From: a virus
Lineage: Duplodnaviria; Caudoviricetes
Direction: 5' to 3' (one strand)
IMG/VR virus record: IMGVR_UViG_3300010348_001841
DNA length: 64,000 nt
Shown: positions 54,239-54,359 of the stretch, piece by piece
Layout: each line of letters starts with the position of its first letter
How positions within the stretch are numbered: position 1 is the first letter of the stretch
Program-made: the position numbers and the translations under genes
The notes under the pieces: generated by a model
The model's database searches: none
The model's input: the letters and a program-made list of their open reading frames with translations, nothing else
What the model was told of the DNA's origin: nothing

Positions 54239-54359
54239 AACAGGTTCGCATTTATATCCTACCATTAGACGACAGTGGTGACCAACTCCACCGCTGGGAT
54301 TCGAACCCAGATCTTCTTTTTTACAGAAAGAATAATTTTGGCTGCTGAAACGAACCTAA
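54239..54359 (-). ncRNA. Y-like RNA F (whole permuted tRNA-Tyr cargo)
   Basis: AGGTTCG/CGAACCT stem, CAGCAG; anticodon, T, closed acceptor and D arms. Confidence 0.82.

Follow-up and report, generated by a model that had tools for sequence, protein, structure and literature searches.

Can an RNA that contains all the parts of a tRNA, in an order in which no amino acid could be attached to it, be a gene in its own right, and if so, of what kind? This question is raised by a short minus-strand segment in the genome of a very large phage (Duplodnaviria; Caudoviricetes; IMG/VR record IMGVR_UViG_3300010348_001841). A stretch of 64,000 nucleotides, which we call the window throughout, was analysed by gene and RNA-family searches, by alignment of orthologs and by comparison with related phages.

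A rearranged cloverleaf in a phage tRNA island

The window is the tRNA island of this phage. ARAGORN finds 56 tRNA genes and a permuted tmRNA gene in it, all on the minus strand, and Rfam confirms this tRNA and tmRNA set. IMG/VR holds several complete relatives of the window phage (362-385 kb); in blastn searches of GenBank phages, only ordinary tRNA matches were obtained, and neither a homolog of the element nor a close phage relative was found there. Small ORFs lie between the tRNAs, and they encode a release-factor fragment (43795-44346, with PCRF and RF-1 domains), a NADAR protein, a non-specific endonuclease and homing-endonuclease-like products. The island also contains two adjoining suppressor-type tRNAs with the anticodons UUA and CUA (38609-38755, minus strand) and a tRNA for which a four-base anticodon, UGUA, was called (60635-60721). 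The tmRNA gene, at approximately 42857-43299 (minus strand), is of the two-piece type and carries the tag ANDAFYGEVALAA. In an unrelated phage contig (L004), a QueC-like (7-cyano-7-deazaguanine synthase) frame was recognised by eye, from its translation start only, downstream of the ORF154 homolog.

The element itself is an RNA gene of 116 bases (54242-54357, minus strand; Table 1), and the span 54239-54359, given to it in a first-pass annotation made from the letters alone, includes 2-3 flanking bases on each side. All of the rearranged tRNA parts listed in that annotation are present on the minus strand, between 54357 and 54242. Every part of a class I tRNA is there; the break in the chain falls between positions 26 and 27, and the two acceptor ends are connected. 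The anticodon-type stem may have a sixth pair, U-A, and the acceptor helix consists of six pairs and an A-A position (1:72). CCA is not encoded after the acceptor 3' strand; there is not even a C at this place. The 130-nt spacer between the element and tRNA-His (54107-54241, minus strand) holds a long imperfect hairpin, ACAUCUUG…CAAGAAGAUGU, as well as a weak terminator-like stem at 54160-54148, and the handle described below is absent from it.

Table 1. Parts of the element and related features of the window
Feature	Position	Strand	Remarks
Handle, 5' strand, AGGUUCGU	54350-54357	-	pairs with 54242-54249, the eighth pair being a U-G wobble; followed by UU and then by CAGCAG (54347-54342)
CAGCAG, family motif CNGCAR	54342-54347	-	exactly 10 nt after the first handle base
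5' linker, A/U-rich, 10 nt	54332-54341	-	poorly conserved (alignment A3)
Anticodon-type arm, UCUUU-CUGUAAA-AAAGA	54315-54331	-	5-bp stem; 7-nt loop at 54320-54326
Variable region, AGAU, positions 44-48	54311-54314	-	U48 pairs with A15
T arm, CUGGG-UUCGAAU-CCCAG	54294-54310	-	loop invariant; two compensatory stem changes
Acceptor-type helix, CGGUGG/CCACUG, with 9-nt closing loop AGUUGGUCA	54273-54293 (loop 54279-54287)	-	three of six pairs compensatory
U8, C9 and D arm, GUCU-AAUGGUA-GGAU (A14, A15, G18, G19, A21)	54256-54272 (D arm 54270-54256)	-	
A26 and 3' linker, UAAAU	54250-54255	-	
Handle, 3' strand, GCGAACCU	54242-54249	-	followed by the family 3' flank GUU
Neighbouring family member	54375-54476	-	17 nt upstream on the RNA strand; handle GGGAUG/CAUCCC, motif CAGCAA, T-arm cargo
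Family member of YrlA topology	18096-18210	-	immediately upstream of the Ro60-like gene, with its end about 14 nt ahead of the ATG
DUF2828 + DUF7788 protein, 481 aa	16658-18103	-	Pfam; predicted Ro60-like ring and vWA domain; presumed handle partner

In its native order, the element was not seen as a tRNA by either ARAGORN or Rfam. When its halves were swapped in silico, ARAGORN at default settings drew a normal cloverleaf and called tRNA-Tyr(gta), which bears out the earlier description: the cloverleaf is complete, its order is circularly permuted and its acceptor is closed. A trim-and-double test returned 119 tRNA calls across the junction for the native cargo and no call for dinucleotide-preserving shuffles (0/100). 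The Rfam tRNA model matched partially (20.1 bits, spanning the anticodon and T arms); no Rfam family covers the element, either at the gathering threshold in the whole window or at E values up to 10 in 54100-54520, where chance and partial tRNA matches were returned. Single-sequence folding is uninformative here, as the minimum free energy given by RNAfold was not better than that of shuffles (z = -0.48) and the corresponding fold breaks the D arm. The rearranged cloverleaf is real, beyond chance. The contiguous order and the free 5' and 3' acceptor ends of a functional tRNA are absent from the element and, with the acceptor closed by a loop and the gene order permuted, it is not chargeable as transcribed, as the annotation had held. 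The tRNA body is also, as was stated there, carried as cargo, lying between the two strands of a handle that is common to an RNA family.

Conservation of the fold and change of the anticodon-type loop

Orthologs were found by BLAST against four complete relatives and by a degenerate pattern scan of IMG/VR. Six further orthologs were recovered from related phages of about 370 kb, 75-92% identical where measured; in the relative G002, BLAST gave no full-length ortholog match. In the alignment of the seven sequences (A3), in which 27 proposed pairs were scored, 98.4% of the cells are paired, versus 39-59% in slid controls. Ten of the 27 pairs, distributed across all five helices, changed on both sides, a value that none of 500 shuffles reached. 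The handle, 98% of whose cells are paired in the seven orthologs, shows a compensatory C-G to U-A change in G003, and the anticodon-type stem is kept at 4-5 bp with three compensatory pairs. The tertiary Levitt pair covaries as well, being A15:U48 in six sequences and G15:C48 in G004; U8, G18-G19 and the T loop are invariant. This alignment indicates that the element is a real gene under structural selection. A pseudogene or a relic of a tandem duplication, which was also considered, is ruled out by the covariation.

Conservation is uneven among the single-stranded parts. Identity in the T loop, the D loop and the acceptor cap amounts to 0.92-1.0, in comparison to 0.69 in the anticodon-type loop. 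The cap, with the consensus A(G/U)UU(G/A)GUC(A/G), stands at 0.92, and the CAGCAG columns at 0.95.

One outcome that the first-pass annotation had named beforehand as refuting its idea was a loop sequence that is not conserved in homologs. The loop is indeed not conserved, and this counts against a Tyr-specific decoy. The seven orthologs carry six different triplets, GUA, GUA, CAA, UGU, UCA, UGA and UCC, within the loops CUGUAAA (twice), UUCAACA, AUUGUAA, CUUCAAA, UUUGAAC and CUUCCAA. GUA is thus kept in only two sequences out of seven, and the Tyr identity assigned to the element is not supported. U33 and the 7-nt loop length are invariant, and two of the loops are non-canonical, one with C37 and the other with C38 together with U32. 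When the element is compared with its ortholog L137, differences are found at four of the seven loop positions and at three of 78 columns in the part that starts with the variable region and ends with the 3' handle. The rate of change in the anticodon-type loop is close to that of the unconstrained linkers, and for this reason diversifying selection cannot be claimed.

The CUGUAAA loop also occurs, letter for letter, in the two real tRNA-Tyr genes of the phage. These genes are 84-86 nt long and have a long arm, and the variable region of the element is 4 nt; the class II body with a long variable arm, typical of bacterial tRNA-Tyr, is not found in it. In each of four genomes the triplet of the mimic matches a real tRNA of the same phage, which is expected by chance with 39-56 tRNAs per genome. 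A function dependent on a Tyr anticodon, whether decoding or a Tyr-specific decoy, is not supported by the sequences compared.

The handle RNA family and a Ro60-like protein

The handle of this family is a stem of 7-8 bp formed by the RNA ends. We scanned for it under strict rules, namely a stem of at least 6 bp starting with RGR, CNGCAR at +10 and a 3' flank of G-A/U. There are eight such RNAs on the minus strand of the window, 54242-54357 being one of those that pass, and none on the plus strand. The same scan of the surroundings of DUF2828 genes in 80 phage contigs (543 kb; proteins 46-83% identical) gave 129 handles on the gene strand and none on the opposite one, nearly all of them directly upstream or downstream of the DUF2828 gene. 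The motif of the element and its offset are common to all eight copies of the window and to these 129.

Members of the family differ in their cargo. The tandem order of the element and its neighbour is kept in G001, L134, L137 and L139; in L002 only the neighbour is present, and tRNAs follow it directly, without the Tyr-like element. Two short members (52049-52112 and 59921-59976, minus strand) carry nothing but a 5-bp hairpin with an anticodon-type 7-nt loop (CUUGUAA and CGGUAAA, respectively). In orthologs of the short members, including L120-L133, C32-U33 and A37-A38 are kept and the triplet changes, which gives the form CU-NNN-AA; the triplet is UGU at 52049-52112, UCC in G001, UUU in G003, L102 and L050, and GUA or GUU elsewhere. 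Another tRNA-like RNA (57971-58089, minus strand) has the normal order and an encoded CCA, and bears a GAUA-closed handle in place of the anticodon arm (…GAUCCU-GAUA-AGGAUACGUU-CAGCAA…). Its layout is a circular permutation of that of 54242-54357.

With the covariance model of the element, full-length relatives were found beside DUF2828 genes in distant phages. Four of them, inspected by eye, are complete permuted cloverleaves whose acceptors end in the tetraloops UUCG (L102), UACG (L050), UUAU (L095) and GAAA (L030). As relatives in other phages are sealed by tetraloops, the sealed acceptor is a matter of design and not an accident of one copy. Our search of the literature on DUF2828, and on permuted tRNA together with bacteriophage, gave no description of the element, nor was an Rfam family found for it.

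In the window, three handle RNAs (18416-18633, 18244-18343 and 18096-18210, minus strand) precede the DUF2828 gene, and a sigma-70-like promoter, TTGACA-17-CATAAT, was noticed by eye ahead of them, at 18680-18640 (minus strand). The promoter, the three RNAs and the DUF2828 gene look like one operon. The last of these RNAs, a sister of the element with YrlA topology, aligned end to end (at 18094-18197) with the Rfam YrlA model, at 20.2 bits (E 0.13) and thus far below the 69-bit gathering threshold. The element lies 36 kb from the DUF2828 gene, on the same strand; other copies of the family abut the gene.

The product of this gene was modelled with AF2 (pLDDT 81.7), and the 13 best Foldseek matches of the model in the PDB are all Ro60/TROVE proteins, matched over the full length of the model. 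They include Xenopus and human Ro60, D. radiodurans Rsr and the Ro60 of phage phiLo (E 2e-10 to 3e-5, TM 0.44-0.62). DUF2828 touches the phiLo TROVE protein by sequence as well, in a profile search (E 0.0013). A full-length RtcB RNA ligase is encoded in all four relatives of about 370 kb (G001-G004; E about 1e-125 to 1e-130), by genes far from the tRNA island (e.g. G001:352957-354102). In Salmonella, rtcB shares an operon with rsr-yrlA (PMC7790460, PMC4201824). The CCA-adding enzyme family PF01743 is absent from the four complete relatives. The T4 Rnl1 family, PF09511, gave no match, but this result is uninformative, as the control genomes gave none either.

Possible roles of the element and its likeness to known systems

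In Y RNAs, the terminal stem serves as the binding site for the Ro60 ring, and it is with the opposite end that partners such as PNPase interact. The bacterial Y RNA YrlA contains a tRNA-like T/acceptor/D module that is recognised by tRNA enzymes. We consider it probable, on balance, that the element is a non-chargeable tRNA mimic belonging to a Y-RNA-type particle with a Ro60-like protein; in our reading, it would be a full-cloverleaf version of the YrlA-type tRNA-mimic Y RNAs. This assignment rests on the cloverleaf and its conserved pairing, on the handle family and its genomic link to the Ro60-like gene, on the protein model, on the weak YrlA match of the sister RNA, on the Ro60, YrlA and phiLo precedents and on the presence of RtcB in all four complete relatives. 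The Ro60 of phage phiLo binds two phage-encoded Y-like RNAs (PMC12135203), and TROVE proteins of jumbo phages have been placed among RNA-repair systems (PMC7824862).

The mechanism that we propose is as follows. The ends of the RNA pair into the 7-8 bp handle, after which comes single-stranded CAGCAR, and it is most likely this handle to which the phage Ro60-like DUF2828/vWA protein binds. The permuted tRNA body between the handle strands would fold into the tRNA L-shape; having no acceptor end, it would not be aminoacylated. The element would thereby present a tRNA shape on the Ro60-like particle, bringing tRNA-recognising proteins to the ring or holding them there. Candidates for such partners are RNase P, enzymes of modification or repair (e.g. 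the RtcB ligase of the relatives), and host tRNA-directed nucleases, and the mimic may engage such proteins irrespective of its anticodon. Some observations speak against this reading. The CAGCAR motif is unlike the GNCGAA of known Ro60-binding Y RNAs (PMC4201824), the element is distant from the DUF2828 gene and has no match to the Rfam YrlA model, and its 9-nt acceptor cap is conserved beyond what a passive loop would require. On the last point, the RNA may be processed at the cap, and it would then no longer be sealed.

How such processing might proceed is suggested by YrlA of Mycobacterium smegmatis, which is cut by RNase P and receives CCA in vivo (PMC4201824). By analogy, RNase P would cut 5' of the acceptor 5' strand, inside the cap, the upstream half would be trimmed and supplied with CCA, and on the Ro60-like protein the halves would be kept together by the handle and the acceptor helix. 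We regard such a two-piece mimic, which would refine the main reading rather than replace it, as unlikely. The six acceptor pairs with an A-A position and the well-conserved cap agree with it, but the full-cloverleaf relatives sealed by stable tetraloops point to a closed design, neither CCA nor C follows the 3' strand, and a host enzyme would be needed for want of a CCA-adding enzyme gene in the complete relatives. The decoy proposed at first, directed against anticodon nucleases or defence proteins that read the loop of tRNA-Tyr, seems quite improbable to us. Nucleases directed at tRNAs do exist in host defence (PMC7824862), the loop is that of the phage's own tRNA-Tyr genes, and the short family members offer anticodon-type hairpins as their only cargo; against this, GUA is rarely retained while the remaining RNA is 74-96% identical among orthologs, and the body, being of class I, has no long variable arm. 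A more general decoy, aimed at tRNA-binding proteins by its shape only or through varying anticodons, is conceivable; the genomic evidence points first to a Ro60/Y-RNA-type particle.

It is very unlikely, in our estimate, that the locus is a true permuted tRNA gene, whose transcript would be circularised at the handle ends (e.g. by RtcB) and opened at the acceptor cap, yielding a tRNA that can be charged and that carries the handle hairpin as an insertion at position 26/27. Such a product would have the very topology of 57971-58089 (normal order, encoded CCA and GAUA-closed handle), the order and break point resemble those of Cyanidioschyzon permuted tRNA genes, and the relatives encode RtcB. 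However, the flanks form a continuous helix and no bulge-helix-bulge, the anticodon changes among orthologs in which the acceptor is nearly constant, the two non-canonical loops would be intolerable in a decoding tRNA, position 1:72 would be an A-A mismatch, and the tetraloop-sealed relatives cannot open at the cap. There is likewise only a slight chance that one and the same RNA, maturing by way of a circle, is encoded in two layouts, by the element and by 57971-58089. In that event, cleavage at the conserved flanks UAA/AG...CU/GAU would be followed by circularisation of the transcript by RtcB, the handle would become the GAUA-capped hairpin seen in 57971-58089, and RNase P together with CCA addition would open the circle at the conserved acceptor cap. 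If true, a bacterial virus would here provide the first permuted tRNA-type gene to mature by way of a circle; its anticodon-type loop could vary freely, perhaps as the bait end of a repairable decoy aimed at anticodon nucleases. Finally, the handle could be a mere processing signal that frees spacer RNAs from the tRNA-island transcript, the cargo being a decaying relic of a tandem duplication and the link to DUF2828 a coincidence. All copies do lie in tRNA islands, and their A/U-rich flanks may be likened to RNase E sites. Nonetheless, we hold this to be extremely unlikely: compensatory changes in every helix and in the tertiary pair mean selection on the fold, and a strand-specific clustering of 129 to 0 beside DUF2828 genes, at the protein identities given above, is hard to obtain by chance.

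Read as a tRNA-mimicking Y RNA with a Ro60-fold protein, the element is of a kind that is already known, in phages included. What differs is the DUF2828 protein family, the handle motif with its fixed spacing, the many dispersed copies and the complete cloverleaf with an anticodon-type arm. Ro60 and Y RNAs are conserved from bacteria to humans; the phage version of the tRNA-like module of bacterial Y RNAs would be a whole tRNA, anticodon arm included, and other members of the handle family display single tRNA parts. In the genomes that host the family, the tRNAs number more than 50 and are accompanied by a tmRNA, a release factor and RtcB. Two questions become testable in this way: which tRNA-binding protein is engaged, and whether the fast-changing loop is a bait or is simply unconstrained. 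There is also a warning for annotation, as tRNA finders miss such genes entirely.

Among known systems, two with permuted tRNA parts resemble the element only in part. In the permuted tRNA genes of Cyanidioschyzon merolae, other algae and archaea, the 3' half (from the anticodon arm to the acceptor 3' strand) also precedes the 5' half, the acceptor strands are connected by a short linker, and the leader pairs with the trailer. Those genes differ in that the element has no bulge-helix-bulge motif, its flanks forming a continuous 7-8 bp helix, and in that its anticodon is variable and its related copies are tetraloop-sealed; bacteria and phages are not known to have a splicing endonuclease. The two-piece tmRNA at 42857-43299 is encoded in the same genome and likewise has a permuted tRNA-like domain, and it is matured by cleavage of the segment that joins the acceptor strands. 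However, it encodes CCA and a tag reading frame and has no anticodon arm, whereas the element has neither the encoded CCA nor the tag frame nor a lack of that arm.

The likeness to YrlA (Rfam RF02553; Chen et al. 2014, PMC4201824; Thermus phage phiLo, PMC12135203) is more extensive. In both, the ends of the RNA form a terminal stem, a short and conserved motif lies unpaired on its 5' side, and a T arm, a closed acceptor-type helix and a D arm stand, in permuted order, between the strands of this stem. Both show covariation of the tertiary pair 15:48, and RtcB is encoded in the same genomes. YrlA and the handle family are each linked to the gene of a protein with a Ro60 fold, predicted in the case of the phage, where this copy lies 36 kb from the gene and other copies abut it. 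The differences are equally clear. The partner of YrlA is annotated as TROVE, and the presumed partner of the phage element is DUF2828/DUF7788. The YrlA motif is GNCGAA(N0-1)G near the 5' end (PMC4201824), in place of which the element has CAGCAG and its family CAGCAR at a fixed +10; no Rfam YrlA match was obtained at E values up to 10 in 54100-54520. YrlA is present in one or two copies beside the protein gene, whereas the phage family has 8-9 copies scattered through a tRNA island of 56-57 tRNAs. Lastly, in YrlA the protein-binding stem replaces the anticodon arm, whereas the element keeps a full anticodon-type arm with a 7-nt U33 loop, and with it a complete cloverleaf.
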